DNA of 64,000 bases from Fibrobacteria bacterium (GTDB lineage Bacteria; Fibrobacterota; Fibrobacteria; UBA11236), in NCBI GenBank assembly GCA_039917895.1, contig JBDSIO010000219.1:78-64077 (forward strand), in the 5' to 3' direction. Made by a program: the position numbers and the translations under genes. Position 1 is the first letter of the stretch; the number at the start of each line of letters is the position of its first letter. Under the pieces are notes generated by a model. The model did not search any database. It was not told the DNA's origin and saw only the letters and a program-made list of their open reading frames with translations. Positions 21,258 through 46,180 of the stretch are shown here, in pieces.

Positions 21258-21266
21258 CCCGTCTCC

Positions 21267-22397: not shown

Positions 22398-22400
22398 GCC

Positions 22401-25400: not shown

Positions 25401-25880
25401 CCCGGCGTCGCGGGGGTAACCGGCGTCGGCCCATTCCTTGAAGCCGCGCCGGATCATGGGCGCTTTGACGCGCCGGTCTCCGTAGAACCTGCGAACCAGG
25501 GCCAGGCCCTTTTGGCAGATGCGCGGATCCCAGCGGTGGGAACTCTGATTGCCGTACAGATCCACGGCCTTGCCGTATCCGTAGCTAGGACCGATGCGTT
25601 GCAGTACACCGTTCTTGACCTTGGCCTTGAGCAGGCAATTGTGGGTATCGTTGGGCGCGCACAGGAAGACGAATTCCGAATCATGCTCGAAAATGTTGCG
25701 ATAGGTCTTCTCCCAATCCCGATCGGGATATGCGGCCAGGGGATTTTCGATTGCGGTTGGCTTGAAATAGCGCAGCGGGGTCGCATCCGCCCATTTGGCC
25801 GCGGCCAGCGAGCCGCCGGCGATGCCCATGCCCTTGATGAAGCTGCGGCGACTGACGCCTTTGTTCTTATCCTCGTTCAT
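22401..25880 (-). CDS. nxrA: Alpha subunit of a Tat-exported NarG/NxrA-like Mo-bisPGD enzyme (periplasmic nitrite oxidoreductase / periplasmic Nar type)
   Basis: 1159 aa. Twin-arginine signal [19 protein letters not shown]. The N-terminal Fe-S region reads C-x3-D-x3-C-x39-C (an Asp variant). The large size and periplasmic targeting fit NxrA of Nitrospira/anammox/Nitrospina rather than cytoplasmic NarG. The direction of catalysis cannot be read from the sequence. Confidence 0.8.
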
Positions 25881-30498: not shown

Positions 30499-33400
30499 TC
30501 ATCCATGGCCGTGGAAATTCCCGGAAGCGGACCAATGGGTCATCGCCTGATCGATGTCCGCGGCATCCACCCGCGTCCTACCCTCGCCCTTGGCGCGGCG
30601 TTCGATTTCCTTCATTACCATGGGACGGATGAAGTCCGGGATGCGGGAAGTGCGGGCCGTGGCCGCTTCGCTCCACTCCAGCTCCGGCGCCATCTTGGCG
30701 GAGCCATCACCCCAGCTCCCGTATTTTCCGTCCATGATCTCCAGATCCACCACGTCCGCTCCTCCCGCGCGCGCCCATTTCTCGACGCGGCAGCGCGTCA
30801 TGGTGCGCATGAAGCCTTCCGGTACCCGTTCCAGCCTTTGCAGGGCTTCGGGTTTCCAGGCCAGGGTCTTGAAAGCGGAAGACTTGGCCTGGGCGCGCTT
30901 TTCCGCGCTCAAGCGGACGAAATGCCCGGTGCCGCAATTGGCGCAGACCGTCGGTTTGGCGCCGTCCAGGATAATGCCGCACAGGTGGCATTCCCAAGGA
31001 GCGATCTCCGAGGCATCGGAGGCTTCCGGCGTTGCGCTTGCCTGGGCGGAAGTTCGGGCCGGATCCGCGGAAGGGGTCGCGGCATGCGGGTTGGCGCCTT
31101 GGCCATGGGCATGCGGATTGACGCCATGGGCGTGGATATGACCATGCGCCCCGGGGTCTCCTTGGCCCGATCCCGTCATGCTTGCATGCATCTTCTCCCG
31201 GGCCTTGCCCAGCCCCGCTTCCGCCACCTCCAAGGTGATTTCCTTCGTTCCGGAGTTCAGGGCGTGTTCCTCCACCATGTTTTTCGCGGCCTTGCGCATG
31301 AATCCATCCGGCACCCGTTCCAGGCGCTTGACGGCATCTTCCGTCCAGGCCGGTCCTCCGAAGGCGTCGGAGGATATCGCCCCGGGCGCCGCTTCGGCGG
31401 CGGATACGGGGGCTGCGGGAGCAAGATCCGCGGTAGTGGGAACGGCGGTTGGCGCAGCGCCGATGCCGGCGGCGCGCAATTCGGCCTCCACCATCTCCAG
31501 GGTCACGGCCGTGATACGTTGGGTCAATGCCCGTTTTTCCAGGCGGTTGCGGATCTGCGCCGTCACCGTCGCATCCCCGGACTTTTCCAACAGGGCCAGC
31601 GCGGATTTCTCCCACATCAATTGCCGATCCCCCAGAGTTTCCAAGGACTGCCCTTCGCTGACGATGGCGCTTTCCAGCAGCTTGAACATATGCCCGCCCA
31701 TGCCGCAGATAGGGCAGGACTGGGGCCGGGATCCATGATGGACGTGGCCGCAGGCCTGGCATTTGAAGCTCAAGGCGATCTTGTCGTGGGAATCGCGCTC
31801 CTTGCCCTCGTCCGTGTCCACGATGCCCATGCGGGCCAGCGCAGCGGGAGGCAGCAGGGTTTTCAGGGCCGCGTTCAGGATCGACTCCGTGACCACGGTA
31901 TGGCCTTCGGCCACGCAATAGTTCTGGATCGCTTTCATCGCCATATTCTGCGCCATGGCCGGCACCCGTTGCATGCGGGCCTTGGCCTCGGTGGTCCAAC
32001 TCACGGTCTCCTCGGCCTGGAATTCCACCGGAGGCTTGGCCTTGGAATCCACCACCAATATGTTGCAGGGCGCCAGGCGGCACAGGTTCTCGGTGTTGCC
32101 GCCGATGTCCATGTCCTCGTCGCTATGGAAGCCGATACGGCCCACCACCAGCAGCCAGGGCGGCTCAGCCTTGACGAGCTGCAGGATCTTTTCGAAGGGT
32201 TTGCCATCCAACAAACGGATCTCGATGGCTACGCCCGCCTCTTCGGCCAGCCGCTTGGCGATGTTCAGGTAGGACTGGTAGATCTTGGCCAGCCCCGAGT
32301 CGATGATGTCTTCATGTAGCTTCTCCTGCTCTTCGAACTTGAAGACCTTACGCGCCTTTTCGGTGAGGGTCTTGTTCAGGCTTTTGAACATGGCATAATG
32401 GAAATAGGGGTCGAAGGCGGATACCGCCAGTACTTTCTTGTCCAATGTCTTCGCGAGCCGCATGGCCCGCTGCAGGCCGCCCCAGCTTCGGATGCTGCCG
32501 TCCAGGCAGACTATGATGGTGTCGGAGACGTTCTCTTCCACGGACATGCGCGTAAGCAGGACATCGCGGCGGACGCGGCGCAGCATGCGCTCGGCGACGG
32601 TGCCCAGTTGGGAATTGCCCACGCGGCCGACGCCGTGCGCGCCCAGGGCCACGAGATCGTAATCGTTGGCCGCGATGTCCTCGGCCATGGCCTTCCAATT
32701 CTTGCCTTCCAGGCTCACGGCGGCGAACTCCAGGTTATCGGTCTTGCAAGCGCCGGACATGGCCTCCAAATACGAGTCCGTGATCAGCTCCAGCCCTTTG
32801 GTGATCAGGCTGTCGTGGATCTTGCGCTGGCGGTTAAGTTCCTTCTCCTTCTGGAACTCCTCCGGAAGTCCGCCTTCCATGGCGCGGAAACGGTTGTCGT
32901 GCATCTTAGCCGCATACACGTGGCTGCCGATCATGCGGGCGCCTTCGCGCTTGCCGATCAGCATGGCCGTGCGCATGGCCTCGTTGGAAGGGACGGAACT
33001 GTCCAGGCCCACGTAAATGCGCGAGTATTTCCAGTCTACCGCCTTGGGCGCGGCTTCCCCATCGGGATGGGAGCCGGGCGCCTGGAAGGAGGGAACCGTT
33101 GCAGGGACGGCCTCAGCGGCCTCGGCAGCTATGGCGGTAACGGTGGCCGGGGCGGCCGCGGCGGCTATTGCAGACGGGGCGGAAGGGGCGGTTGCCGCAG
33201 CCGCCTCTAGGGTCGCGGCAGTTGCGGTCCCGGCGTCCTTCGGCCGCTCCAAAACCTCGCGGGCCTCCTTCATCAGTTCCATGGTGATGCGCGTGAACCC
33301 GCGCCCCTTGGCGTATTTTTCGATCTGCTCGGTGATGAACTGGCGGATCATGCCCGGGGCCCGGTTGATGGATTCAATGGCCTCGGGCTCCCATTCCATA

Positions 33401-34152
33401 CCGCCTTTGGAAGGCAGCATCACGATCTTACCGTCCTTTTCCGGAACCCGGAAAGGAGTCTTGTCGTGGATGGATGAGATCCAGAATACATAGGCGTAGG
33501 GGAATTCGTGTTGGGCGATATGGAAGCTGTCGTACTCGAACATTACGCGCGCCAGCTTCACGAATTCATGTCGCGGATCTTCCGGACCGATCACCTCCAC
33601 GGCCGCGTTGACCTGGAAGCTGATGTAGTCCGGGGCGTTGCCGGTATAGTGCAAAGCCGCCAGGGGCGTGGCCGAGATATTCCTGAAGGTGGTCTTTTCG
33701 AAAATCTCGAGGCTGCTCAGCGATCGGTAGTCGACCTTCTCCCGATCGAAATAGAAGCTGGAAACGGCTTTCAGCCTTTCCTGCAACGATTCCTGCCAGG
33801 GACGGCCGCGGGTGCGTTCAATCGTCTCCTTGAACAGGTTGACGTAGGATTCCAGGTATTCCCGCTTGGGCAGGAAGCCCACGCCTTTGTTGCCGCAATT
33901 GAACGGAAAGGTCTGGCCGCGCGCCTGGGTGATCATCACGGGCAGGTGCGAAGTGAAAAAGGCGGGATTCCCCTTTCCCAACAGCTTGTCGTACATGGCG
34001 CGGCGGCCTTGTTCGATCCACTCTATGTACCGCTCCGGCAGGCTTTCCATCGGCAGGTCGACCGGTCCCTCGGCCAGTTCCACGCGAAGGCGATCTCCTG
34101 CGACTACGACCTTGGGCAGGCCCTGAAATTGTCTGGCCGTATTCTGCTGCAT
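30499..34152 (-). CDS. 1217-aa multidomain protein: N-terminal ~270-aa unknown domain, six PCP_red-like repeats (protochlorophyllide-reductase ChlB C-terminal-domain-like), tandem universal stress protein (Usp) domains, two rubredoxin-like zinc ribbons, and Ala-rich and His-rich linkers
   Basis: Repeats of the form (L/M)xW(T/E)xEAxxRLxR(V/I)PxFxRxxxxxxxExxAxxxGxxxITxExxxxA occur six times (e.g. VSWTTEAKARMQRVPAMAQNMAMKAIQNYCVAEGHTVVTESILNA; PAWTEDAVKRLERVPDGFMRKAAKNMVEEHALNSGTKEITLEVAEAG). The Usp motifs are IYVGLDSS...GAHGVGRVGNSQLGTVAERMLRR and IIVCLDGS.... The zinc ribbons are CQACGHVHHG...CPICG and CHLCG...CANCG. There is an HGHIHAHGVNPHAHG His-rich segment. Confidence 0.7.
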   Translation of the reverse strand: MQQNTARQFQGLPKVVVAGDRLRVELAEGPVDLPMESLPERYIEWIEQGRRAMYDKLLGKGNPAFFTSHLPVMITQARGQTFPFNCGNKGVGFLPKREYLESYVNLFKETIERTRGRPWQESLQERLKAVSSFYFDREKVDYRSLSSLEIFEKTTFRNISATPLAALHYTGNAPDYISFQVNAAVEVIGPEDPRHEFVKLARVMFEYDSFHIAQHEFPYAYVFWISSIHDKTPFRVPEKDGKIVMLPSKGGMEWEPEAIESINRAPGMIRQFITEQIEKYAKGRGFTRITMELMKEAREVLERPKDAGTATAATLEAAAATAPSAPSAIAAAAAPATVTAIAAEAAEAVPATVPSFQAPGSHPDGEAAPKAVDWKYSRIYVGLDSSVPSNEAMRTAMLIGKREGARMIGSHVYAAKMHDNRFRAMEGGLPEEFQKEKELNRQRKIHDSLITKGLELITDSYLEAMSGACKTDNLEFAAVSLEGKNWKAMAEDIAANDYDLVALGAHGVGRVGNSQLGTVAERMLRRVRRDVLLTRMSVEENVSDTIIVCLDGSIRSWGGLQRAMRLAKTLDKKVLAVSAFDPYFHYAMFKSLNKTLTEKARKVFKFEEQEKLHEDIIDSGLAKIYQSYLNIAKRLAEEAGVAIEIRLLDGKPFEKILQLVKAEPPWLLVVGRIGFHSDEDMDIGGNTENLCRLAPCNILVVDSKAKPPVEFQAEETVSWTTEAKARMQRVPAMAQNMAMKAIQNYCVAEGHTVVTESILNAALKTLLPPAALARMGIVDTDEGKERDSHDKIALSFKCQACGHVHHGSRPQSCPICGMGGHMFKLLESAIVSEGQSLETLGDRQLMWEKSALALLEKSGDATVTAQIRNRLEKRALTQRITAVTLEMVEAELRAAGIGAAPTAVPTTADLAPAAPVSAAEAAPGAISSDAFGGPAWTEDAVKRLERVPDGFMRKAAKNMVEEHALNSGTKEITLEVAEAGLGKAREKMHASMTGSGQGDPGAHGHIHAHGVNPHAHGQGANPHAATPSADPARTSAQASATPEASDASEIAPWECHLCGIILDGAKPTVCANCGTGHFVRLSAEKRAQAKSSAFKTLAWKPEALQRLERVPEGFMRTMTRCRVEKWARAGGADVVDLEIMDGKYGSWGDGSAKMAPELEWSEAATARTSRIPDFIRPMVMKEIERRAKGEGRTRVDAADIDQAMTHWSASGNFHGHG

Positions 34153-34203: not shown

Positions 34204-35493
34204 CTATTTGAAATGGAAGCCGAGTTCGGCTTCCCGTTCGCGCTTATGGCGCGTCATCAATTCCGGAGTTACGGGTACGCCTTCGGTCCGGGCCCGCGCC
34301 TCCAACTTCCGTTTCACCACCGGCCTCAGGAACAACGGCAGCTTGGACAGCCGTTCCCGCGCTTCGGGGGTCCATACGACTTCCGTGTCCCCGTCCGGTT
34401 TCCGCACCGGTATGATCGCGCCCCCGGCCGGCTCGTATTCACAGCTGGGGTCTTCCGCCATGAGATTTCCCTTGGCCAGGGATCGGGCCCGGCAGCCCCC
34501 GCACACCAGCTTGTATTCGCAACCGCCGCAACGGCCCTCCAGCAGGGCCGGATTGCGCATGGAGGCCAGCAGCACCGAGTCGTCCCAGATCTTCCAGAAA
34601 CCGTCCCGTCGTACATTCCCGGCGGAAAGTTCCATGTACGGGCAAGGGGTGATCTCCCCTTTGGGGGTGATGCGGCAATAATGGCTGCCCGCCAGGCAAC
34701 CGCCGCCGTCGTAACCTTCGGCGCGCGTGTAGGGCGATGCGGGATCGGCTTGATGGAGGATGCGCTTGAAATGGGGCGTGCAGCGCGTTTGCACCAGGAT
34801 GCCTTTGGCCGTGGGTTGGATGGCGGCGATTTCCTTGAGCGCGGCTTCATATTCCGCGGCCGAGAGATCCATGGAGCCTTCGCCCCGGCCCACGCAGACC
34901 AGGAAGAAGAAATTGATGATGGACGCGCCGAGTTCGCGGGCCATGTCCACGGCTTGCGCAATCTCGCTCCGGTTCCATCGCGTTATCGTGAAGTGGATCT
35001 GGGCATGCATGCCGGCCGCGCGGCAATGTTTTACCGCCTCGCAAGTCCTGGCGAAAGCGCCGGGCATGCCCCGGAAAGAATCGTGGGCGCCGGGACGGAT
35101 GGAGTCCAGGCTGATCCCCATGCCTTCCAGGCCCGCCGCCCTGAGTTCCTCCGCGCGCTTGCGGTTCACCAGCACCCCGTTCGTGCCCAGCACCATCCGC
35201 AGACCCGCCTCCACTCCGGCCTTGACGAACCCGTCCAGGCCCGGATGCAACAGGGGTTCGCCTCCGGTGAGCACGATGATGGTACCCGGCGCCCGCGCGC
35301 CGATGTCGCGGAACAGGGATGCGACCTCCTCATCGGCCATCTCCCCGTCCATGACCGACGCCCGTTGGGTGGCGTCCATATAACAATGGGCGCAATTCAG
35401 GTTGCAACGCCGGGTCAGGTTTACGGCCACCAGGTACGGTTCAAACTCCCGCTCCCCGCGCCGTTCTTCCTTTTTTCCCGTTTCCATCGGCAA
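34204..35493 (-). CDS. Radical SAM / SPASM-domain enzyme (AhbC/NirJ/PqqE-like) with a C-terminal PCP_red-like domain
   Basis: CNLNCAHCY (CxxxCxxC). The SPASM Cys-rich region is GGGCLAGSHYCRITPKGEITPCPYM...CGGCEYKLVCGGCRARS. The C-terminal VVWTPEARERLSKLPLFLRPVVKRKLEARARTEGVPVTPE matches the repeat family in the adjacent 1217-aa protein. Confidence 0.75.
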   Translation of the reverse strand: MPMETGKKEERRGEREFEPYLVAVNLTRRCNLNCAHCYMDATQRASVMDGEMADEEVASLFRDIGARAPGTIIVLTGGEPLLHPGLDGFVKAGVEAGLRMVLGTNGVLVNRKRAEELRAAGLEGMGISLDSIRPGAHDSFRGMPGAFARTCEAVKHCRAAGMHAQIHFTITRWNRSEIAQAVDMARELGASIINFFFLVCVGRGEGSMDLSAAEYEAALKEIAAIQPTAKGILVQTRCTPHFKRILHQADPASPYTRAEGYDGGGCLAGSHYCRITPKGEITPCPYMELSAGNVRRDGFWKIWDDSVLLASMRNPALLEGRCGGCEYKLVCGGCRARSLAKGNLMAEDPSCEYEPAGGAIIPVRKPDGDTEVVWTPEARERLSKLPLFLRPVVKRKLEARARTEGVPVTPELMTRHKREREAELGFHFK

Positions 35494-35524: not shown

Positions 35525-36241
35525 TTAATACTCGAAGGCGACTTTCGCGTCCTTGCCCGCTTCCACCTTCACCTGCACGGTTTTCGCGCCCAGGGCCTCA
35601 TGCCAGATCTTCAACGTATAGGTTCCCGCGGGCACGTCGGCCAATATGAACTCCCCGGCCGGTCCGGTCACCGCCGCGTAGGGATGCGGCAAGGCCCAGA
35701 TGTATCCCTGCATGAAATCATGGGCATCGCACTCCACCGAGATCAGGCCTTCCTTGCGGAGGATTTTGGTGTTTTCCACGACCTGGCCCTTCTTAGGCAG
35801 CGCCATGTTGATCAGGTTCTTCTTGGCCGCGCCGTCCACCAGGTAGAAGTGCGAATTGTGGAGCATGTCGTCGTCGTTGCGCACTTTCAGGGTCGCGCCC
35901 ACCGGGGCCACAAGTACGTGGGGAGTGAACTTGCAATTGGTGTTGTCGTAGAAGATTTCGCCTGCCGCGGCTTTCTTGCCTTCCGCAATCTTGTCGATCA
36001 TCACCACGGCGAATTGGAGGCCGCCGCCCGCTCCCGTCACGTATTTTTGGGCCGCGATCTTGGCGCCGCACTGCTCCGGATTCTTGCTGACCACTTTCAT
36101 CTCGTCCGCCGGGGCCTTCCCTTTGATCTTGATGGCCCCGCTGATGCTGCCGCCGTTGGCGACGGCGATCTCCTTGTATTGCGCCGAGGCCGCCACGGCT
36201 CCGGCCAGCATGAACGCGCATAAGGTATTGATGGTTTTCAT
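35525..36241 (-). CDS. Periplasmic cupredoxin-like (type 1 copper) protein
   Basis: Signal peptide MKTINTLCAFMLAGAVAASA (RBS AACGGAGGA before the ATG at 36241). Candidate copper ligands are H in MLHNSHF and the C-x2-H-x2-M motif (VECDAHDFMQG), as in amicyanin/pseudoazurin. Confidence 0.5.
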   Translation of the reverse strand: MKTINTLCAFMLAGAVAASAQYKEIAVANGGSISGAIKIKGKAPADEMKVVSKNPEQCGAKIAAQKYVTGAGGGLQFAVVMIDKIAEGKKAAAGEIFYDNTNCKFTPHVLVAPVGATLKVRNDDDMLHNSHFYLVDGAAKKNLINMALPKKGQVVENTKILRKEGLISVECDAHDFMQGYIWALPHPYAAVTGPAGEFILADVPAGTYTLKIWHEALGAKTVQVKVEAGKDAKVAFEY

Positions 36242-36281
36242 TTCGATCCTCCGTTTTGGGATGGGTTTTCCATGGCTGGGC

Positions 36282-37394
36282 TCAGAAGAAGACATGCAGC
36301 CTTCCCACGATCTGGTTCTGGTTGTCCGCCGTGCTCTGAGGTATCCAATCGTTTTTCCGGTAATACAATCCCACCTGCAGGAATTGCATGATGAAGGGTT
36401 CGACGCCTACCACCACGCGGGTCTGATTGCTTTGCGCCTGGGGGATTGCCGTATTGCGCCAGAAGGACTCGTAGGTGACCTTGAAATTAAGTCCCTGCAT
36501 GGGCAGGAAGTCGACCTCGGTGTAGTCCTCGACCTTGTCGATGCCCTCATCCTTGGTGTAGTCGCGCTCCCCCAGGATGGTGAACATGCCCAAGGTGGTG
36601 CCGGCGAAAACGCCGTAAGATCCTTTGGTTTCCTTGAATTCCTTGGTAAGTTCCTTACTGTAGGAACCGCCCAGCCTGACGGTGCGCAGCACGGGCACTT
36701 CCCTGAACACGAAGGAGCCGACGCTCATCCATTTGGTCTGGGTGATGGAACTGACCAGGGACAGCGGCCCGGGTTCGAATCCCATTTCGTATGCCAGGGC
36801 CGTGGAACTGTAAGTGTAGCCGGTGAAGTTGCGCACGAAGGCATCATCGTCCATGAGCCGGTATCCGTATGGAAGCAGCATCTGGCCGAATTTCAAGTAG
36901 CTGTTGGCGGGCAGGGAAATCATGCTCCAGAGTTCGCGGAAGCCGCCTGCGGACATGTCCTTGTCGTAGTAAAGCTTCAACCGATCCTTGATCAGATCCA
37001 TCTCCACGTATAGGTTCTTCTCCTTGAAGGTGCCGGCGTTCCAGTTCCCCTCCACCATGCGCGCCGAATCCCCGGGGTTGGCGGGTTTGGTGGTGAACTG
37101 GCGGAGATACGCCTGTTCGATGCGGAAATTCGCACCCAGGGAGACGGAGTTGTTCAGCTTCGGATCGAAGGAATTGAGGTTCTTCTGCGCGAGTGTGGAA
37201 GCCACCAGCAGCTTGTATTGCGTATACACCTCTCCGAACTCGGTCCGCTTGCCGCCCCCCGTCCGGTTTACGTGGCATTGGCTGCATTTGAATCCCGTTC
37301 GGACGGCGATATAGGGCTCGGCGGAAACCAATCCGGTGGCCAGCAGGAACACGATCGCGATAGGTTTCCAGGGCATTGACGTTGACCGTTGCAT
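36282..37394 (-). CDS. Fused monoheme cytochrome c / outer-membrane beta-barrel (Cyc2-like cytochrome-porin)
   Basis: Signal peptide. A single CSQCH motif within about 15 residues of the predicted mature N-terminus. The remaining ~330 aa form alternating amphipathic beta-strands ending ...GRLHVFF (C-terminal Phe). This architecture matches Cyc2-type iron oxidases. Confidence 0.45.
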   Translation of the reverse strand: MQRSTSMPWKPIAIVFLLATGLVSAEPYIAVRTGFKCSQCHVNRTGGGKRTEFGEVYTQYKLLVASTLAQKNLNSFDPKLNNSVSLGANFRIEQAYLRQFTTKPANPGDSARMVEGNWNAGTFKEKNLYVEMDLIKDRLKLYYDKDMSAGGFRELWSMISLPANSYLKFGQMLLPYGYRLMDDDAFVRNFTGYTYSSTALAYEMGFEPGPLSLVSSITQTKWMSVGSFVFREVPVLRTVRLGGSYSKELTKEFKETKGSYGVFAGTTLGMFTILGERDYTKDEGIDKVEDYTEVDFLPMQGLNFKVTYESFWRNTAIPQAQSNQTRVVVGVEPFIMQFLQVGLYYRKNDWIPQSTADNQNQIVGRLHVFF

Positions 37395-37402
37395 ATCCGC
37401 GC

Positions 37403-38134
37403 CTAGTTCCTTCCCGTGATCCAGGTTTTAATGGTTTGGATGTCCTCGTCGGAGAGGGGCGCCGCCGCTTCGGCCGGCATCCTTACGCCGTAGGGCGGGG
37501 TCGCCTTGAAGATCTTCAGGAACAGGTAGCTGCTGTCCGGTACCCCCGGCAGCACCCGCATCATATTGATGTTTTTTACCGTCAGCATCTCGATCGACTT
37601 GATGTTGACCAGGCTGTCCCACGCCGCGCCCGATTCCAGAGTCAGCCTGGTTTGCATAAATCCGGTGCCGCCGGGCTTGATGTGGCATTTCTCGCAATGG
37701 GTCTTGAAGATGGGCAGCACGTTGGCCGTGAAAAAAGCCCGGTCCAGGCACTCCACCGGCTTGGGGAGCCTGGAACAATCGATGCAGCGCGAGGGAGGAT
37801 TGGGGAGTAGGCAAGAGTCCACTGCCACGCAACGCGCGGGAGGATTGGGCAAAGCGCAGGAATCGGGCACAGCGCAGCGCGCGGGGGGATTGGGGAGCAG
37901 GCAAGAATCCACCGCCAGGCAACGCGCGGGAGGATTGGGCAGAGCGCAGGAATCGACGACGCAGCCGGCTGAGGCGGGATTCGCGATGCAGGGATTCGGC
38001 TTGATGAGAGCTCCGCCGGCGGTCAGACCCACGCCGTCTCCGGCTTTCATGCAGGCGATGAACAGGGCGGGAATAACGATGGCAGCCGCCAGCAGTCGGG
38101 ATTTCCCGCGCAGCCCTTGTTGCAAGCGGTTCAT
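37403..38134 (-). CDS. Lipoprotein c-type cytochrome with five tandem Cys-containing 14-15-aa repeats
   Basis: Lipobox (ALFIAC). Repeats DSC(A/L)LPNPPARC(L/V/A)AV occur five times, followed by a class I cytochrome c domain with CEKCH. It overlaps the downstream cytochrome gene (ATGA-type coupling at 38131-38134). Confidence 0.6.
   Translation of the reverse strand: MNRLQQGLRGKSRLLAAAIVIPALFIACMKAGDGVGLTAGGALIKPNPCIANPASAGCVVDSCALPNPPARCLAVDSCLLPNPPARCAVPDSCALPNPPARCVAVDSCLLPNPPSRCIDCSRLPKPVECLDRAFFTANVLPIFKTHCEKCHIKPGGTGFMQTRLTLESGAAWDSLVNIKSIEMLTVKNINMMRVLPGVPDSSYLFLKIFKATPPYGVRMPAEAAAPLSDEDIQTIKTWITGRN
37790..37975. repeat. Coding tandem repeat (~42-45 nt unit, 5 copies) inside the lipoprotein cytochrome gene
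   Basis: Repeated cgcgcgggaggattgggcaaagcgcaggaatc-like units are visible on the + strand and encode the Cys-Pro-rich peptide repeats. Confidence 0.6.
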
Positions 38135-39153
38135 GGCGTCACCTCCGTGTCTTTCGTGAACAGGATGAAAAAGGGATTCGGCTTACGGATCAGGGAGCGG
38201 ATGTAATGGACCAAGGCCCATTTCCTTTTTTCCCCAAGGGCGTTCCGCTGTTCGGCCGGCATTTTTTGCAACGCTGCTTCCGTCGGTTGGGTGAGCAGCC
38301 AAGCCTGCAACTGATCGATTTCGGCGGCCGGATAGGCTTCCTTGTACTTGACCGGATCCACCGTAGCGTCTCCGGAAATGAGGAAACCGTCGAGAGCGTA
38401 GGCGGGCATGGGCGTGCCGTTGAGGCCGGTGGTGAAGGTGCGGTACAGGGTCCCGGCGTCGTTCCCCGCCTTGTAGCGATACGCGGTCAGGTTCCAGGGG
38501 AGGATTTTGCGGCCCCAGTCATCGTCCAGGGTCTTACCGGATTTCCCATCGCCTTTGCCGGAGCCGCCGTGGCAGGCCCAGCATTCCATCAGCATGTACA
38601 CCAGCTTGCCCTCCTTTACCGCTTGCGGAGTACTCTCGGGAACCGCGGGAACCTCCATGGGGGAGGGCGCGCCTTCCTTGAAATCCGGAGAAAAAGTCTT
38701 GAGGAAGGCGACCACGTCCAGGCGCTCCTGCAGGGTAAGAGTCGTCCCCCAGGCCGGCATCTGCGTTCCCGGAACCCCTTTTTCCACGATGGCCAGCAGA
38801 TCCGCATCGGTGGGCAGCTCTCCGCTCGGGGTCGAACGGAATTTGAACATGCCCGCGGTGAAATCGCGCGGCCGCGGATTCAGGTATTGGCCCGCGGCGC
38901 TCCGGCCGTCGCCGTTTTCGCCATGGCAGGCCGCGCAGGATTTGGAGTAGACGGCTTCGCCCCGGGACAGGGAAGGCGATGACAAAGCCGCCTGGGCGGG
39001 CCCGGAGGCGGCGCTTGCCCCGTGTAATGCCACGATGGCGGCAAAACCGATCGCCCGCGAAAGACGGCCGGACAGGTTGAGGGGATAGGCATTCAAGATG
39101 TACCTCCCGTTTCTCTCATTCATGGGTGGATACCACATCAAATTCCATACCAT
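38131..39153 (-). CDS. Periplasmic diheme c-type cytochrome
   Basis: Signal peptide. CAACH and CWACH motifs. Alternative starts at 39138/39123. Confidence 0.65.
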   Translation of the reverse strand: MVWNLMWYPPMNERNGRYILNAYPLNLSGRLSRAIGFAAIVALHGASAASGPAQAALSSPSLSRGEAVYSKSCAACHGENGDGRSAAGQYLNPRPRDFTAGMFKFRSTPSGELPTDADLLAIVEKGVPGTQMPAWGTTLTLQERLDVVAFLKTFSPDFKEGAPSPMEVPAVPESTPQAVKEGKLVYMLMECWACHGGSGKGDGKSGKTLDDDWGRKILPWNLTAYRYKAGNDAGTLYRTFTTGLNGTPMPAYALDGFLISGDATVDPVKYKEAYPAAEIDQLQAWLLTQPTEAALQKMPAEQRNALGEKRKWALVHYIRSLIRKPNPFFILFTKDTEVTP

Positions 39154-39312
39154 ATTTCCTGGTGTTTATTGCGGAACCGGGAAGCTTCGGTTTAAGGATG
39201 GTTGGGCTCATAAGCTTCAATCTATCCGCGGCCGTTGCTTCGCGGATTACGCGAAAAATGCCAGCTTGGCATGCATTCCGGCCCCATTTTGGTCCTTATG
39301 GCACGCATTGGG

Positions 39313-40845
39313 CTAACGCTTGGATGCGGCGGCGCGCCTGCGCAGGAACCAGATGAGACCGGCTTCCAGCACGATGGCCAGGGCGGCCCGCTTCGAAGCC
39401 GGGGCCAGGGGATTCTCCGCGCGGGCCGGCTTCAGGTACAAGGTAAACCAGGAGGTTACCCCACGGGAGCTGCCCGTCTCGCGCGACAATCCGTCCCAGA
39501 CGGAAAAAGCGATGGGCGCGAAGCCTCCGGGCTCGAAGGCATACCGTCCAGGCTCGGACCGTTTGCGCGTGAACACGGCCCACCATTCCCCGTCCGCATA
39601 ACCCGCGTCGACGCTGATCGTTCCGGGAATCCGCGCCAGGTTTCCCGCGCCCTTAGCCGCATAAACCTCACCCGTATCCGTGCCGAGATCGCGGAACCAG
39701 AGCTCGGCGGGATTCCGCTTGTCGCCGGAAAGGAAGTAGGGTTTACCCGCCCCTTCGATGGCCTTGCCGGGAATCTGAATGGCGATGGCATCGGAAAATA
39801 CCGCCCCGGAATCGCTGCCGGCCGCGTCAATGGGACTATTGGCGCCTTTGCGTTGCGCGCTCATATCGTGCCAGGAGACCAGCACGGAAACGTAGTCGCT
39901 ATCGTAAACGGCCCTCACCTCCACGGCGTTGGCCGCTGGAAAGAAATCCCTGCGCGCTTCGATCACCTGGCCGACCACGGGGAACAAGGCCGGCTTCGCA
40001 CGGGTGAAGGCGTCTCGCCCCGGCTTGGATCCCAATTCGCCGGGAACGGCCTCGGCCGTCACCAATGAAGCGTATCCGGGTTCGTCGCCGGGACTCAGCG
40101 AATGGATGTAGTCGACCAAGGCCCAGCGATCCTTTTCCTCGATGGAGGCCGTGTAGCTGGGCATTGGCGTGCCGTTGAGCCCGGTCATGATGGTGCGGAA
40201 GATATCCTCGCGCCGGGGCCCGCCGCGGAAGGTCCAACGCCGCGTCAGATCCGCGGGCCGGATGGCGTGGCCCCAATCGTCGTTCAGGGTCGGTGCGGAC
40301 TCCCCGTCGCCGCGGCCCAGCTTGCCATGGCAGTCCATGCATTTGTTCTCGACGAAGAGTTTGCTGCCCCGCTCCGCCGATTCCTTGCTGAAAGCCGGAG
40401 GCTTAACAGCGGCGATGGGTTTGGGGTGGTTGGCGGTATCGGCGAAATCGGAATTGAAGCCCTTGATGAAGGCGACGAGATCGCCAAGCTCTTCTTCGGA
40501 AAATTCCGGCCAGGCCGGCATACCCGTATAGGGCATGCCGCTCCGGATGATGGATTTCAGATCCGCATCGGTGGGAGATTCCCCGCTTTCCGTGGTGCGG
40601 ATTTTGAACGATCCCGAGGTGAAATCGCGCGGCAGCGGCCGGAAGAACTCCGCCCCGTCCCCCTTGCCCTCGCCGCCCGTACCATGGCATTGGGAGCACT
40701 TGTCCAGGTAGATGGCCTTGCCCGCCGCGGCCCGGGCATCCGTAGCCGGCGCGTCCGCCGCGCGCGCAATGGGAGCGTAGGAAAGCGCGGCCGAGATCAC
40801 ACCCGCGAGGGCGAGGGTAGCGGAAAGCCTGCGATGGGTATTCAT
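39313..40845 (-). CDS. Membrane-anchored diheme cytochrome c fused to an EB_dh-like heme-b domain (NxrC-like gamma-type subunit)
   Basis: Signal peptide. CSQCH and CMDCH motifs. The C-terminal half has EB_dh-like segments (VRAVYDSDYVSVLVSWHD..., AIAIQIPGK, PYFLSGDKRNPAELWFRDLG, FSVWDGLSRETGSSRGVTSWFTLYL). A C-terminal TM helix AALAIVLEAGLIWFLRRR follows. Confidence 0.55.
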   Translation of the reverse strand: MNTHRRLSATLALAGVISAALSYAPIARAADAPATDARAAAGKAIYLDKCSQCHGTGGEGKGDGAEFFRPLPRDFTSGSFKIRTTESGESPTDADLKSIIRSGMPYTGMPAWPEFSEEELGDLVAFIKGFNSDFADTANHPKPIAAVKPPAFSKESAERGSKLFVENKCMDCHGKLGRGDGESAPTLNDDWGHAIRPADLTRRWTFRGGPRREDIFRTIMTGLNGTPMPSYTASIEEKDRWALVDYIHSLSPGDEPGYASLVTAEAVPGELGSKPGRDAFTRAKPALFPVVGQVIEARRDFFPAANAVEVRAVYDSDYVSVLVSWHDMSAQRKGANSPIDAAGSDSGAVFSDAIAIQIPGKAIEGAGKPYFLSGDKRNPAELWFRDLGTDTGEVYAAKGAGNLARIPGTISVDAGYADGEWWAVFTRKRSEPGRYAFEPGGFAPIAFSVWDGLSRETGSSRGVTSWFTLYLKPARAENPLAPASKRAALAIVLEAGLIWFLRRRAAASKR

Positions 40846-41654
40846 TCCGCGCGCTCCTGGGCCCTGGGTTTCTGCCCCGTGAACCGGTAGAGGAATAGGA
40901 TGACGTCCCAGATTTCATCCTCGGAAAGGAATTTCTCCCAGGCCGGCATCGCCGAGGCCCAAGGAGTAGACTCTTCGGGAAGGCCCGGACCTCCCTTCGC
41001 GATGCGCCAGAAGAGGTAGGACTCCTGCAACATGGCGATGGTGGTGGGATCCTGGAAATTGGCGGGCAGGGGATCGAAGCCGTGGGAATGGATGCCGTCC
41101 CCTTTCAGGTTGTCCCCGTGGCAGAACACGCAGTTCCGGTAATACACCTTGCGGCCGTCCGCCACGTGCGCGTCGAAGGCCGCCGCATCCTTGTCCTCCA
41201 GCTCCCGAAAGGGATTCGACGCCGTGAGCAGGTTGATCTTCTTGCCCTTGAAATCCATCTCCCCCGGCGGGGCGGGATGGATGGTGCGCGCATTTGCCGG
41301 GGCCGCCACCTCCCGCGAGGCGTCTCGGTAGGCCGCGTAGCCGGCCAGCAAAGGGATGATCGCGGCCAAGGTCCAGAGCAACGGGGCGAAACGCCGTTCC
41401 GTAAAGAAGCGCAGCAGGGCAAGCGAAGCCGTGCGCAAGCGTCCCGAATCCGCCGAGAGATAGATGAGCAGCACGGCCGTGAGCACGGCCAGGTATAGGC
41501 CGATGATGGACGAAGGCAGCGGCGGCGTCAACGCGTAATTCAAGACCAGGAAGAATCCCGACCACCAGGCCCCCATCCAGACGAGGATGGGCGGCTTCAG
41601 GAAGCGCAGTCCTATCAGCACCAGCAGAACGGGCCCGAGTATCAGCAGGTTCAC
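40842..41654 (-). CDS. Polytopic membrane protein with a C-terminal monoheme cytochrome c domain
   Basis: Four predicted TM helices followed by CVFCH. Its start overlaps the upstream gene's stop and its stop overlaps the downstream gene's start. Confidence 0.6.
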   Translation of the reverse strand: MNLLILGPVLLVLIGLRFLKPPILVWMGAWWSGFFLVLNYALTPPLPSSIIGLYLAVLTAVLLIYLSADSGRLRTASLALLRFFTERRFAPLLWTLAAIIPLLAGYAAYRDASREVAAPANARTIHPAPPGEMDFKGKKINLLTASNPFRELEDKDAAAFDAHVADGRKVYYRNCVFCHGDNLKGDGIHSHGFDPLPANFQDPTTIAMLQESYLFWRIAKGGPGLPEESTPWASAMPAWEKFLSEDEIWDVILFLYRFTGQKPRAQERAE

Positions 41655-42469
41655 CGCTTCCCCCTTTGCGCGGAAAGGTACGCGACCATGGCCTTGATGT
41701 CCCCGGCGGAGGTCTTGTCGTAGAATCCCGATGCCTTGAGCGTATTGGCCATCAGGCCCTTGGGATATCCCTTGGGCGTTACCGCATCCGGATCCATGAT
41801 GGATTCGGAGATCAGGCTGGGTTTGAGACGCTTGCCGACATCGAAGAGACTGGGGCCCACCAGCTTGCCGGGCTGATCCAGCCTATGGCAACCGGCGCAT
41901 CCGTTAACGGTCAACAACTCCTTGGCGGTCCTGGGGACCGTGGTTGCCGCGGAAGCGGCCGGGGCGGCCGGACCATCATTTGCGACCGTACCGGAGGGCG
42001 AAAACGCGTGACGGGTCAGCATAGTGACGTTCGGCGTACCGCCCAGGCTTTGCAAGTAGGCGATCACGGCCATGATTTCCCCGTCGGAAAGATTGATGGG
42101 CGGCCCATGGATGGGGGGCATGCCGGGGCTGTAGCCTTCGACGATGAAAGCGTTGGGTTCGTAGATGGACTGGGCCAGGTACTCCACATCCGACATTCCC
42201 GGCCTTTGCTTGCCGGCGCGGGCGCCGATGCCGCCCAGATCCGGGAACCGCCCGGGCTTGTCCGATCCGATGGTATGGCAGCCCAGGCAGGTGCCCTTAC
42301 CGCCCACGATTTCCTGGCCGGCCTGGACCAGGTCATCCGTGGTCATGTCCGCACGTACCTCCAGATCCTTGGGAGGGTGGACCTCCTTCTGCGGGACCAT
42401 CTGCCCGATGTAGGCGTAGAACGCCGTGACCAGCACGGTGAAGAGGATGATCTTCAATACGTTGATCAT
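41651..42469 (-). CDS. Membrane-anchored diheme c-type cytochrome
   Basis: This is the real 272-aa gene embedded at the C-terminal end of the artifactual 695-aa track ORF. It starts MINVLKIILFTVLVTAFYAY (TM helix), then CLGCH and CAGCH. Its ATG at 42469 overlaps the upstream gene's TGA (ATGA). Confidence 0.6.
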   Translation of the reverse strand: MINVLKIILFTVLVTAFYAYIGQMVPQKEVHPPKDLEVRADMTTDDLVQAGQEIVGGKGTCLGCHTIGSDKPGRFPDLGGIGARAGKQRPGMSDVEYLAQSIYEPNAFIVEGYSPGMPPIHGPPINLSDGEIMAVIAYLQSLGGTPNVTMLTRHAFSPSGTVANDGPAAPAASAATTVPRTAKELLTVNGCAGCHRLDQPGKLVGPSLFDVGKRLKPSLISESIMDPDAVTPKGYPKGLMANTLKASGFYDKTSAGDIKAMVAYLSAQRGKR

Positions 42470-44520
42470 GGCGCCGCCTCCTTCCCCGTGTCCCAATCCT
42501 TGCGGCCCGAAAGGCTGGTGAGCCAGAAGACGATGGAGATGAAGGCGAAGAAGATCAGCACCGTCACCGACACCACGATGGAGGCGAACCCCAGGGTGGG
42601 CGTGAAGGCGTCGACGGATTCGTCCCGCATCACCCCGTAGACGTGCCAATGCTGGCGGATGCCGGAGCGGACGTAGCCCATCAGCCCCATCAGCCAGGTG
42701 AAGGTGATGGCGATGAGGATCAGCGCGTATTGCGAGCGCATCGGCATTTTCCCCCAGCGGATTTCGCCCGTGGTGCGCGCGTTGCGGAACATGAAAATGT
42801 CGATGACGGTCACGGAGATCATGGCCGTGAGCACCGAAGCGACCTGGGGGACGGAAAGCCGGATGCGCACCTTGGCTTCCACGAAATAGCCCAGCACGCC
42901 CAGGGCGATCACAAAGAGCGCGGTGAGGGCGAAAATCAGGAACTGGGCCAGGTTGCCTTTGGCGGCCCAAGGCGCGATGGATCGCTTGTTGCCCCGGCGG
43001 TAGAGCAGGAAGCTGACATAGGTGGTCAGGATCAGGATGTTCACGGCGGTGTTCTTGGCCGACATCACTCCCAGCACGCCCAGGGCGGGATGATGCGCGC
43101 CGCCCATCTTGCGCGCCTCCTCCACGGTAGCCACCAGGGAATGCGGCGTCGCCCACACCAGGAAGCACACCGTGATCGAGCCCAGCAGCCATTTGATGAA
43201 CTTGCGGAAGCGTTCCGCCCCTTCGATGCGTTCCATGCCCAGCCACAGGTAATAGTTGGCGGCCAGGAACAGGGTGCCGATCAACACCGCCTGGATGATG
43301 AAAAGCCAGGAGAAAGCGCCGCCCATCAGGGTCATGCCCATGTTCTGGGAATAGGCGTAGATCTCCTTGCCCAGCCAATACCCCGCGAAAGGCAGCGGGA
43401 GCAGGGCGCTGATGGCGATGAAGTTTCCGATGTACCCCATCCAGTCGTAATGGGCCCGTTCCTCGTCCGTCTTGGCCCCCATGAACTTGAAAGCGCCGTA
43501 AGCTCCCGCGATGGATCCGCCGAAGGCGATATTGGCGATCAGACGATGCACGTTGATGGGCATCCAGGTGAAGTTGTGCACCGCCTGCCAGCGGTTGACC
43601 AGTTCGCCCGACTGGGTGATTCCATTGGGGGAATTCATGAAGGTGAGCCACGCATCCGCGATGCAGATGATGGCGACCCCGACCAGGTTGAGGCAGACGC
43701 CGAGGGCCAGGTGCACGCGCGGATGGAACTTTCCCCAACCGTAATAGTAGGCGTACATGAAGATGGCCTCGGCGAAGAACAGGGCTACATAAGGCATGAA
43801 GGTCCAGCTGAAGATGGAGACCAGGTAGGCGGTCAGTTTGGGATACAGAATCAGTAGCATAAAGGTGAGCATCGCGCCCAGGGAGGCCGTGAACGAAAAG
43901 GACGTGGACAGCAGCTTGGTGAATTCATGGGCGAGATGATCGTATTTGCGATCCTTGGTGCGGTACCCGATGTATTCGATGGTCAAGGCGAACATGGGCA
44001 CCGCCAGCACGAAGGCGGCGAACATCAAATGCAGCTGGGCCACGATCCAGATGGCCACGCGGCTGCCGATGACCGGGAACCTGCGGTAAGCGGGTTCGGA
44101 GCCGGGTTTGGTATTCGCGTAAACCTTGGGCGGCTGCGCAACCGGCGCGCCTGGAGCATGGGCCTTGAGTATCCAGGTCACGATGGTAGTGATGTCCTCG
44201 ATGGAAAGCGCGGGATGGGCCGGCATGGGCACGGCGCCCCAGGCCCCCGCGCCTCCGGCATGCACCTTTTCCGCCAATCGGGCGATGTCGGCCGTACCGT
44301 ATTTCGCCGCGATTTCCTTGAAGGCGGGTCCCACCACCTTATGGTCCGGCTGATGGCACACGAGGCAATCGCTCTGCTTCATCAATTCCTGGGCATTCTG
44401 GGCCTTCTGGGCCTTCACGGCCTCCTCACCCCCTGCCGGCGCGGCTCCGAGACACAGCAACGCCAACAGCGCCGCCAACCGCCAAGCAAAGCGTTTCCGG
44501 CGGATGATTCCCTGATCCAT
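42466..44520 (-). CDS. Cytochrome c551/c552-like domain fused to a cytochrome bd-like (CydA-related) polytopic membrane protein; putative novel terminal oxidase or quinol-interacting module
   Basis: 684 aa. Signal peptide. CLVCHQPDHKVVGPAFKEIAAKYG...IVTWIL is a class I cytochrome c domain. At least 12 TM helices follow, similar to the cytochrome bd subunit I family. It is the first gene of the array. Confidence 0.65.
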   Translation of the reverse strand: MDQGIIRRKRFAWRLAALLALLCLGAAPAGGEEAVKAQKAQNAQELMKQSDCLVCHQPDHKVVGPAFKEIAAKYGTADIARLAEKVHAGGAGAWGAVPMPAHPALSIEDITTIVTWILKAHAPGAPVAQPPKVYANTKPGSEPAYRRFPVIGSRVAIWIVAQLHLMFAAFVLAVPMFALTIEYIGYRTKDRKYDHLAHEFTKLLSTSFSFTASLGAMLTFMLLILYPKLTAYLVSIFSWTFMPYVALFFAEAIFMYAYYYGWGKFHPRVHLALGVCLNLVGVAIICIADAWLTFMNSPNGITQSGELVNRWQAVHNFTWMPINVHRLIANIAFGGSIAGAYGAFKFMGAKTDEERAHYDWMGYIGNFIAISALLPLPFAGYWLGKEIYAYSQNMGMTLMGGAFSWLFIIQAVLIGTLFLAANYYLWLGMERIEGAERFRKFIKWLLGSITVCFLVWATPHSLVATVEEARKMGGAHHPALGVLGVMSAKNTAVNILILTTYVSFLLYRRGNKRSIAPWAAKGNLAQFLIFALTALFVIALGVLGYFVEAKVRIRLSVPQVASVLTAMISVTVIDIFMFRNARTTGEIRWGKMPMRSQYALILIAITFTWLMGLMGYVRSGIRQHWHVYGVMRDESVDAFTPTLGFASIVVSVTVLIFFAFISIVFWLTSLSGRKDWDTGKEAAP

Positions 44521-44865: not shown

Positions 44866-44920
44866 ATTGCAAGGCGGACCAAGTTGCAAGGCGGACCAAG
44901 TTGCAGGACCAAGTTGCAAA
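44866..44920. repeat. Direct repeat array, four copies of (A)AGTTGCA(A) / GGACCAAGTTGCA, in the divergent intergenic region
   Basis: The sequence reads tTTGCAAGGCGGACCAAGTTGCAAGGCGGACCAAGTTGCAGGACCAAGTTGCAAAACG. The TTGCA half-sites are spaced 17, 17 and 13 bp. The array lies upstream of nnrS and on the far side of the cyt c-bd-like operon promoter region. Confidence 0.5.
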
Positions 44921-46175: not shown

Positions 46176-46180
46176 GCACG

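Follow-up and report, generated by a model that had tools for sequence, protein, structure and literature searches.

A single open reading frame of 1217 amino acids occupies the minus strand near the middle of the 64,000-nucleotide stretch of Fibrobacteria DNA that was analysed (the window). Its product was found to be 100% identical to a deposited protein, P0001, from a Fibrobacteria MAG in a database search, and was predicted to be cytoplasmic, with neither a signal peptide nor a TM segment. The fused architecture was seen in at least eight independent assemblies, and the GC content across the gene (30499-34152) ranged from 0.55 to 0.665 without a break; there was thus no sign that this giant ORF results from misassembly. 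The features located in the gene and in its operon were as follows.

30499..34152 (-), whole ORF, 1217 aa plus stop, ATG start
33418..34152 (-), N-core, predicted PNPOx-like split beta-barrel, residues 1-245
33244..33402 (-), PCP_red repeat 1, residues 251-303
33019..33240 (-), Ala/Pro-rich low-complexity linker, fusion junction, residues 305-378
32533..33012 (-), Usp domain 1, residues 381-540, canonical G-2x-G-9x-G-T nucleotide motif
32038..32523 (-), Usp domain 2, residues 544-705, motif G-2x-G-9x-G-G
31849..32007 (-), PCP_red repeat 2, residues 716-768
31681..31767 (-), rubredoxin-like Cys4 ribbon 1, residues 796-824 (C798, C801, C813, C816)
31465..31623 (-), PCP_red repeat 3, residues 844-896, degenerate, without the R-V-P motif
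31198..31356 (-), PCP_red repeat 4, residues 933-985, top Pfam match
31003..31197 (-), His-rich linker, residues 986-1050, predicted disordered, unconserved
30913..30996 (-), rubredoxin-like Cys4 ribbon 2, residues 1053-1080 (C1055, C1058, C1070, C1073)
30709..30867 (-), PCP_red repeat 5, residues 1096-1148
30529..30684 (-), PCP_red repeat 6, residues 1157-1208
34204..35493 (-), partner radical SAM/SPASM gene, AhbD/NirJ2 type, 51 nt upstream of the giant
35525..44520 (-), upstream part of the operon, exported/membrane redox proteins
35525..36295 (-), CarboxypepD_reg protein
36282..37394 (-), Cyc2-like monohaem porin candidate
39313..40845 (-), cytochrome c/EB_dh haem b protein
42466..44520 (-), cytochrome bd-like oxidase with an N-terminal haem c domain

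The original prediction, made from the DNA letters, had described six PCP_red-like repeats, tandem Usp domains and two zinc ribbons. Pfam profiles returned significant matches to both PCP_red (PF08369; E 1.4e-50, 169.5 bits compared to a cut-off of 32.5, six stretches) and Usp (PF00582; E 2.8e-26, two stretches above threshold with a tandem Usp fold), confirming the first two of these features. The positions of the PCP_red repeats were set by an HMM made from those repeats, which ended the first two at residues 302 and 767. The repeats share 23-42% identity with one another, contain an invariant Trp, and far exceed chance expectation; each repeat position is kept in orthologues from other phyla. 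Their predicted fold matched the PCP_red NMR structure 2kru with pLDDT >90, as expected if they adopt the ChlB C-terminal fold. To our knowledge, PCP_red otherwise occurs only in the tetrapyrrole enzyme BchB/ChlB, as a single copy at the C terminus of a nitrogenase-like subunit. In contrast, the giant has six copies and no nitrogenase-like domain, and was rejected as a BchB/ChlB protein (TIGR01278, 86.6 compared to 490; NF002789, 98.2 compared to 509), only the last ~50-65 positions of these models being matched. In the DPOR literature accessible to us, a role is given only to the helix upstream of PCP_red, and the protein-protein contact that the original prediction ascribed to the domain in ChlB/BchB found no confirmation there. 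The repeats appear to move between partner proteins: a gammaproteobacterial radical SAM protein carries four of them, and Nitrospirota encode a protein built solely of PCP_red repeats.

The Cys4 ribbons were classed as rubredoxin-like, a term used here for two CxxC knuckles ~11 residues apart together with a profile match above threshold. The CxxCG...CPxCG knuckle pattern is present twice in the giant, and the RUBY_RBDX profile (PF21349; E 5.5e-7, two stretches) scored marginally above its cut-off (29.4 and 26.5 bits, respectively); the NCBIfam rubredoxin-like model NF045720 stayed under its own (34.5 compared to 45). The sequence would also allow these ribbons to hold Zn instead of Fe, which counts against reading them as an electron relay. 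The predicted His-rich stretch, HGHIHAHGVNPHAHG, is present at residues ~1003-1016. However, the linker that contains it was modelled as disordered (model residues 614-668, pLDDT <50), and the stretch is not a conserved feature because it is missing from the orthologue P0004, which is 74% identical to the giant.

At the N terminus, residues 1-245 gave no match to Pfam, even at E ≤1. The unrecognised domain of ~270 aa described earlier therefore has no Pfam counterpart, but it measures ~245 aa and its modelled fold is a PNPOx-like split beta-barrel, a flavin- or haem-binding fold. Sub-threshold PNPOx matches were found only in divergent relatives (P0315, 27.4 bits; P0310, 23.8 bits; cut-off, 28.1). 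Known split barrels of this type, including HupZ, HutZ and ChuZ, share ~10% sequence identity with the N-core, which differs from them in having two inserted helices and many invariant residues peculiar to it (H69, N88-K89-G90 and H211 among them, with C86 nearly invariant). At the sequence level the N-core represents a new family of the PNPOx-like fold. Its nearest architectural analogy is with split-barrel flavoproteins fused to rubredoxin, such as the Moorella high-molecular-weight rubredoxin.

The giant is a true gene fusion, specific to Fibrobacteria, of two halves that SAR324, Delta and Verrucomicrobiota-labelled genomes encode as separate genes. The boundary lies at the residue 305-378 linker; the first half consists of the split barrel and one PCP_red, and the second of the tandem Usp pair, then PCP_red, then twice a Cys4 ribbon followed by two PCP_red. 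Moreover, the split barrel is joined to tandem Usp plus PCP_red in at least three differing orders (Rosetta-stone fusions). Only tandem Usp plus PCP_red recurs in every family member. The split barrel was not found in the Nitrospirota, gammaproteobacterial, Dormibacterota or actinobacterial loci, nor the ribbons in the gammaproteobacterial Usp partner, so any electron relay through these domains cannot be universal in the family. The arrangement had been thought undescribed. It is not unique, since databases contain more than 500 relatives of the core, from many phyla and bearing only the name "universal stress protein", but none of them has been characterised and no published work on the Usp plus PCP_red family was found.

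The partner radical SAM protein was likewise predicted to be cytoplasmic and has a C-terminal PCP_red domain of its own. Its best NCBIfam matches were NirJ2 (290.4 bits) and AhbD (TIGR04545, 289.7 bits), followed by AhbC, NirJ and NirJ1. Residues 21-355 spanned the full length of both top models (AhbD, 339 positions; NirJ2, 326 positions), with scores below the equivalog cut-offs of 500 bits. AhbD/NirJ2 is therefore the closest family by profile score, but the curated threshold excludes the protein from it, and the reaction may differ from that of AhbD/NirJ2. The CX3CX2C motif is found at residue 30 (CNLNCAHC). At residues 322-351 there is a CX2CX5CX2CX16C motif (CGGCEYKLVCGGC-X16-C), which is of the AhbD auxiliary-cluster type, defined as a C-terminal CX2CX5CX2CX17C (PMC10114771). 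The protein is thus like AhbD/NirJ2 in both motifs and in its cytoplasmic location. In contrast to them, it adds a PCP_red domain outside those models, has a dedicated multi-domain partner and sits in bd-like oxidase operons. AhbD reportedly requires both an electron donor and an electron acceptor, and no accessory protein for it is described in the review that states this (PMC10114771).

A radical SAM/SPASM gene with PCP_red was adjacent in 18 of the 20 distinct loci seeded by the Usp/PCP_red protein, and the Usp/PCP_red gene was adjacent in all three distinct loci seeded by the radical SAM protein; the two genes frequently overlap. With PCP_red on both proteins, these findings support the expectation that the giant co-occurs and works with its SPASM neighbour. 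The two exceptions (L021 and L023), without an adjacent radical SAM gene, count against this reading. In one lineage the radical SAM gene is translationally coupled to the gene of a HemY-family oxidase: in a gammaproteobacterial locus (L025) it is overlapped by 4 nt by this gene, whose product passes its curated cut-off (227 compared to 98 bits), and a homologous gene overlaps it likewise in L027. A link of the pair to tetrapyrroles is drawn from this coupling, from the profile scores and auxiliary motif of the radical SAM protein, from the presence of PCP_red in BchB/ChlB and from a CopD/HemJ-like membrane protein after the pair in Nitrospirota loci.

The radical SAM protein and the giant are the sole cytoplasmic products of the operon, all others being exported, and four or five c-type cytochromes are encoded in 35525..44520. 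Operons for bd-like oxidase and cytochrome c accompany the radical SAM/Usp pair in five or six lineages (Fibrobacterota, SAR324/Delta, Verrucomicrobiota-labelled, gammaproteobacterial and Dormibacterota loci); no bd-like oxidase was found within 10 kb of the pair in Nitrospirota loci. The outer-membrane porin to which the original prediction drew attention was conserved in none of 28 loci, and the hemerythrin and molybdoenzyme neighbours were likewise not conserved. Canonical HemN and HemY are also encoded in the window, indicating that ordinary haem b synthesis is independent of the radical SAM/giant system.

Given the conserved radical SAM linkage, a maturation or redox-partner role in this cytochrome-rich operon, as suggested at the outset, was the best reading of the data, and metal delivery by the giant found no specific support. 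Because the radical SAM neighbour is near-constant and the bd-like oxidase operons are frequent, the giant probably serves haem synthesis or modification as a redox and assembly partner. As a whole mechanism, a cytoplasmic multi-domain accessory of an AhbD/NirJ-type radical SAM tetrapyrrole enzyme is our leading but tentative explanation, to which we give a little under an even chance. The mechanism that we infer comprises physical interaction through PCP_red, electron transfer, the identity of cofactor and substrate, and the destination of the product. The PCP_red modules, one on the enzyme and many on its partners, would join the enzyme, the split-barrel site and the Cys4 centres in a complex, and may also touch the tetrapyrrole. 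The split barrel and ribbons would either donate an electron for SAM cleavage or accept one from oxidative side-chain chemistry, and the Usp pair would make activity dependent on nucleotide status. Haem, or a modified form of it, would be the product and would go to the co-encoded bd-like oxidase and cytochrome c chain. The arrangement suggests that AhbD-type enzymes can carry built-in redox partners.

A more far-reaching version is possible but doubtful. In it, radical SAM-PCP_red proteins and their Usp/PCP_red partners, with or without the split barrel, would be an unrecognised haem-tailoring and insertion machine supplying a non-standard haem to the cytochrome c-dependent bd-like (OR-N/OR-C) oxidases of Nitrospira, Manganitrophaceae, SAR324, Endoriftia-type symbionts and these Fibrobacteria. 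PCP_red would then be a general assembly or handling module of tetrapyrrole pathways, and the BchB/ChlB copy one instance of it. The OR-N/OR-C oxidases have been proposed to act as terminal oxidases in nitrite and manganese oxidisers and in many uncultured lineages, and their cofactors, assembly and activity are so far putative. A conserved cytoplasmic module linked to such operons, composed of an AhbD-like radical SAM protein and a dedicated partner with nucleotide-binding, Cys4 and split-barrel domains, is a testable candidate for making or inserting the haems of these oxidases. It also gives PCP_red a first functional context beyond chlorophyll synthesis.

The Usp pair raises the alternative of a nucleotide-sensing regulator, which we regard as unlikely as a full account. 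The pair would sense ATP, cAMP or another nucleotide and, via PCP_red, switch the radical SAM protein or a respiratory complex under low-oxygen, NO or energy stress, the giant itself having no electron-transfer or substrate-handling role. The nucleotide motif is canonical G-2x-G-9x-G(S/T) in Usp domain 1 (GAHGVGRVGNSQLGT) and has G replacing S/T in Usp domain 2 (GRIGFHSDEDMDIGGNT); its glycines are invariant in both domains (54 sequences), and the pair is by motif predicted to be of the ATP-binding (UspFG/MJ0577) type. The closest folds were the ATP-binding Rv2623 of M. tuberculosis and TTHA0350 of T. thermophilus, and c-di-AMP-binding Usp domains (KdpD) were also among the structural matches; Usp domains are able to bind cAMP as well (Rv1636). 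That tandem Usp plus PCP_red alone is universal in the family would fit such a sensor, as would the setting of the gene, since the window constitutes a low-oxygen/denitrification island in which a Crp/Fnr regulator and the hemerythrin lie close by. However, Rv2623 and TTHA0350 are proteins of ~270-300 aa with no further domains, whereas the Usp pair of the giant lies inside a 1217-aa redox-domain protein and its helical regions, unlike theirs, bear many His, Asp and Glu residues invariant across phyla. Regulation leaves this invariance unexplained, together with the recurrent fusion to a cofactor-type split barrel and rubredoxin-type Cys4 knuckles. Nucleotide sensing is compatible with the redox and assembly partner reading, in which it can fit as a component.

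It is rather improbable that the giant is instead a haem or tetrapyrrole carrier, a HemW-like chaperone or buffer whose split barrel and PCP_red domains would bind finished haem or its tetrapyrrole intermediates and pass it from the radical SAM protein to the membrane bd-like oxidase and the cytochrome export machinery. The structural relatives of the split barrel do include the haem binders HupZ, HutZ, ChuZ, KtzT and MSMEG_6519, and the only other known setting of PCP_red is a tetrapyrrole enzyme. HEAT/PBS-lyase-like repeat proteins recur beside the radical SAM/Usp pair, and in Nitrospirota loci a CopD/HemJ-like membrane protein follows it. The precedent is HemW, a dedicated radical SAM haem chaperone serving respiratory nitrate reductase (PMC10114771). 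As a cytoplasmic Fe-S protein supplying haem to a membrane respiratory enzyme, HemW is a functional analogue of the system of the giant, but it belongs to an unrelated fold family (HemN-like), and haem binding by the giant is putative.

Far less credible is the idea that the radical SAM/SPASM enzyme acts on the PCP_red repeats as its protein substrate (RiPP-like or protein cross-linking), which would make the giant a precursor with multiple cores or a structural protein that becomes modified. Many SPASM enzymes act on peptides with repeated motifs, the PCP_red repeats contain the invariant Trp, and the peptide maturases WgkB and PqqE were among the weaker NCBIfam matches of the radical SAM protein. 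Tetrapyrrole-type models outscored them two to three times, however, and the repeats are well folded by prediction, old and individually conserved. PCP_red also occurs on the enzyme itself and in BchB, where radical SAM plays no part.

Finally, there is next to no likelihood that the giant is an assembly artefact or a generic stress protein lacking any specific tie to its neighbours: the public annotation reads 'universal stress protein' only, but the gene linkage is kept across at least six lineages, and the recurrence of the fused architecture and its unbroken composition speak against an artefact. The redox and assembly partner reading gives more than 500 'universal stress proteins' a new label.

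The giant ORF and the radical SAM gene located 51 nt upstream of it were annotated as follows:

30499-34152, minus strand, giant ORF of 1217 aa with an ATG start
34204-35493, minus strand, radical SAM/SPASM-PCP_red enzyme, matched over its full length by the NCBIfam models NirJ2 (290 bits) and AhbD (289.7 bits)

The giant protein was identical to P0001, a deposited Fibrobacteria MAG protein whose sole name is 'universal stress protein'. Each of the domains named in the original prediction was confirmed by Pfam, with six stretches of PCP_red (E 1.4e-50; residues 251-302, 716-767, 844-896, 933-985, 1096-1148 and 1157-1208), two of Usp (E 2.8e-26) and two of the rubredoxin-like RUBY_RBDX (E 5.5e-7). 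The Cys4 sites were found at C798/801/813/816 and C1055/1058/1070/1073, and both are built from rubredoxin-type knuckles (CxxCG...C(P)xCG). The NCBIfam BchB models matched only with their last ~50-65 positions, far under the cut-offs, indicating that the giant protein is not BchB. The His-rich stretch that had been pointed out does exist, but disorder is predicted for the linker that contains it, and an orthologue of 74% identity lacks the stretch. The repeat-to-repeat identities lend no clear support to an internally duplicated 'ribbon plus two PCP_red' supermodule. A promoter and terminator scan returned 1 promoter-like site versus 4.4 expected and 23 terminator-like sites versus 16.7 expected. 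Every domain of the giant protein falls within a known family or fold, and the N-core, its N-terminal PNPOx-like split β-barrel, is a new sequence family among split barrels.

The next NCBIfam matches of the radical SAM enzyme after NirJ2 and AhbD were AhbC, NirJ and NirJ1. All five scores are under the equivalog cut-offs, and by curated thresholds the enzyme is not an AhbD equivalog. Peptide maturase models scored two to three times lower than the tetrapyrrole-type models. The enzyme contains CX3CX2C at residue 30 and CX2CX5CX2CX16C at residues 322-351, the latter being the type of auxiliary-cluster motif reported for AhbD (PMC10114771). PF08369 was present in all of its best 120 relatives, some of which carry the JGI label 'AdoMet-dependent heme synthase', and the ~675-aa radical SAM protein of Endoriftia-type Gammaproteobacteria has four PCP_red-like repeats of its own. 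At one locus of this gammaproteobacterial type (L025), a HemY-family protoporphyrinogen/coproporphyrinogen oxidase gene (227 bits versus a curated cut-off of 98 bits) overlaps the radical SAM stop codon, and a homologue occupies the same position at L027. A PDB sequence search with the enzyme returned distant SPASM enzymes only and no AhbD structure.

A core of tandem Usp plus PCP_red was found in more than 500 database relatives from Fibrobacterota, SAR324, Nitrospirota (hosts including Nitrospira sp. and Ca. Manganitrophaceae), Dormibacterota, Actinobacteria, Gammaproteobacteria and Verrucomicrobiota-labelled MAGs. The typical relative has 680-900 aa and begins exactly at Usp1. The split barrel with PCP_red is a separate ~300-aa gene immediately upstream in SAR324, Delta and Verrucomicrobiota-labelled loci, and an Ala/Pro-rich linker joins it to the Usp part in at least eight independent Fibrobacteria-type assemblies. 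Misassembly of the giant gene, raised beforehand as a possible objection, was not borne out, as no compositional break was seen across it and the fusion recurs in those assemblies. When 1.84 billion representatives were scanned in full by HMMER with the N-module (N-core plus PCP_red repeat 1), 59 clusters were obtained at E ≤ 1e-30. Further fusion orders among the hits were N-core-Usp-Usp-PCP_red, N-core-Usp-Usp, Usp-Usp-PCP_red-N-core and PCP_red x3-N-core. Such varied orders are a classic Rosetta-stone signal for joint action of the split barrel, the Usp pair and PCP_red. PCP_red as a repeated, mobile module is new. Full-text literature searches turned up no description of proteins that combine PCP_red with either Usp or radical SAM domains, and neither gene is mentioned in a bd-superfamily preprint or in comparative papers on Nitrospirales and Nitrospinota.

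The window operon proteins were then compared with all ORFs of 28 fetched loci, representing 23 distinct places. The radical SAM/SPASM-PCP_red gene adjoined the Usp gene in 18 of the 20 distinct loci reached via the Usp protein, the exceptions being one in Actinobacteria (L021) and one in Dormibacteraceae (L023). The Usp gene was likewise adjacent in all three distinct loci reached via the radical SAM protein, and in many cases the stop codon of one gene overlaps the start codon of the other. Of the original placement of the giant gene between a SPASM radical SAM gene and a porin gene, the former side was therefore conserved, but the porin was a neighbour in 0/28 loci. The hemerythrin, Crp regulator and molybdoenzyme of the window were also conserved neighbours in 0/28, and the molybdoenzyme, porin and hemerythrin are accordingly placed outside the module. 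Twelve of the 23 places (Fibrobacterota, SAR324/Delta, Verrucomicrobiota-labelled, Gammaproteobacteria and Dormibacterota) had a cytochrome bd-like oxidase no more than 10 kb away, together with c-type cytochromes, among which there was usually a cytochrome c/EB_dh protein. HEAT-repeat and CarboxypepD_reg proteins were recurrent neighbours across several lineages. An AhbD-like radical SAM enzyme with a dedicated multi-domain partner is new, as is the repeated coupling of this module to bd-like oxidase operons.

In the operon running from 44520 to ~30499, all products except the radical SAM enzyme and the giant protein have a signal peptide, a TM segment or CxxCH. The two are the sole cytoplasmic products among exported redox proteins, as expected of maturation factors. 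Our tentative interpretation is that the giant protein serves a tetrapyrrole radical SAM enzyme of the AhbD/NirJ type as its accessory subunit, with assembly, redox and nucleotide roles in haem supply to the oxidase and cytochromes. The PCP_red modules, which both the enzyme and every one of its partners carry and which evolution has shuffled among them, would provide the contacts that assemble the complex. The split barrel, with flavin or haem as putative cofactor, and the rubredoxin-like centres may carry electrons to or from the clusters of the enzyme, and the Usp pair may couple its activity to nucleotide status. AhbD is reported to require an electron donor as well as an electron acceptor, and an AhbD-like radical SAM enzyme has been put forward for the decarboxylation of coproheme under anaerobic conditions (PMC10114771). 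The product would be haem or a modified haem, with the bd-like oxidase and cytochrome chain as presumed clients. Of this model, the folds, fusions, gene linkage, sequence motifs and cellular location are established, while the contacts, cofactors, electron flow, substrate and client are inferences. The window encodes canonical HemY and HemN, so that ordinary haem b would probably not depend on the AhbD-like enzyme. Against these details, the split barrel and ribbons are not universal across the Usp/PCP_red family, the radical SAM gene is absent at two loci, and no nearby oxidase was found at any of the five Nitrospirota loci. The DPOR papers examined do not define PCP_red as a protein- or substrate-contact element; they describe substrate contact only for BchB helix residues 398-420, upstream of PCP_red.

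That the giant protein is a pure nucleotide-sensing regulator agrees with the universal presence of the Usp core in the family but fails to fit the fusions to redox domains, and we consider it unlikely. A haem carrier or chaperone, for which HemW would be a precedent and the haem binders related to the split barrel an argument, appears quite unlikely. It is highly improbable that the PCP_red repeats are substrates of the radical SAM enzyme, because they are folded, ancient, carried by the enzyme itself and also found in BchB. An artefact or unrelated stress protein is contradicted by the recurrence and gene linkage and can practically be dismissed.

Several homologous loci of the accessory-subunit candidate and its enzyme contained additional genes:

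L019 14419-15922, L022 12142-13605, L018 13426-13953 and L024 11667-12194, the two extra Nitrospirota/Manganitrophaceae-type genes
L023 8001-17335, operon headed by the Usp/PCP_red gene, with an ABC transporter, two bd-like subunits, Rieske, cytochrome b and cupredoxin
L021 8808-9077, Fer2 2Fe-2S ferredoxin (89 aa) directly after the Usp/PCP_red/ribbon gene
L016 12442-14640, L025 3311-5767 and L027 3287-5779, HEAT/PBS-lyase-like repeat proteins of 730-830 aa
L028 17595-19311, protein of at least 828 aa with a hydrazine-synthase-alpha-like domain (PF18582)

In the Nitrospirota loci the radical SAM gene is directly followed by that of a small CopD/HemJ-like membrane protein with weak similarity to CopD, DUF4149 and UPF0093 (HemJ), and two of the five add a PCP_red-only protein with three or four repeats. 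A ChlI/Mg-chelatase-like AAA+ gene lies near the module in L019 and L022. In the Dormibacteraceae MAG (L023), the Usp/PCP_red gene is first in its operon, with no radical SAM gene found nearby, and the ABC transporter beside the bd-like genes recalls CydDC. A P450 and an FAD monooxygenase lie near the actinobacterial gene (L021). The large HEAT/PBS-lyase-like proteins adjoin the module in SAR324 and Gammaproteobacteria, and the PF18582 protein is close to the operon that holds the bd-like, radical SAM and Usp genes in a Verrucomicrobiota-labelled MAG.

The gene content of the window is that of a low-oxygen and denitrification island:

2000-18571 and 44901-63810, respiratory/denitrification genes: CcoG-like, fused cbb3 CcoN-CcoO, HemY, HemN, MoeA, MoaA, NnrS, NosD/NosL/NosZ, ScdA/RIC, NorB-like COX1 protein and NorQ
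19715-25880, minus strand, type II DMSO-reductase-family enzyme: alpha 1159 aa, beta 376 aa, NarJ-like chaperone
35525-36295, minus strand, exported CarboxypepD_reg-domain protein, 256 aa
36282-37394, minus strand, 370-aa protein with a signal peptide, just one CxxCH (residue 37) and C-terminal '...LHVFF'
37403-38134, minus strand, lipoprotein-like protein, 243 aa, in which five Cys-rich 'DSCxLPNPPxRC' repeats in tandem precede one CxxCH

The type II DMSO-reductase-family enzyme is Nar/Nxr-like and under every equivalog cut-off. A Nitrospira/anammox NXR locus with two nxrA genes was rejected; the second 1159-aa ORF (46263-49742) encodes a B12 ribonucleotide reductase. The window has a single EB_dh haem b (gamma-like) domain (39313-40845, minus strand), which is fused to a dihaem cytochrome c and belongs to the bd-like oxidase operon, separate from the DMSO-reductase-family genes. 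The CarboxypepD_reg-domain protein has a possible type-1 copper motif (H...C-x2-H-x2-M, 'ECDAHDFM'), and its homologues adjoin the Usp/radical SAM pair in Gammaproteobacteria and Verrucomicrobiota-labelled loci too. The 370-aa protein, without Pfam or NCBIfam matches and conserved in Fibrobacteria-type loci only (7/28), resembles a Cyc2-type fused monohaem cytochrome-porin; if this candidate is of that type, the bd-like oxidase may be supplied by Fe(II) oxidation or by electrons taken up from outside the cell. The only family match of the lipoprotein-like protein was a weak one to cytochrome c. The listed 695-aa ORF at 41651-43738 (minus strand) is an over-extension overlapping the bd-like oxidase gene, and comparison with L015, another homologous locus, makes a small cytochrome c gene with its end at 41651 the probable true annotation.
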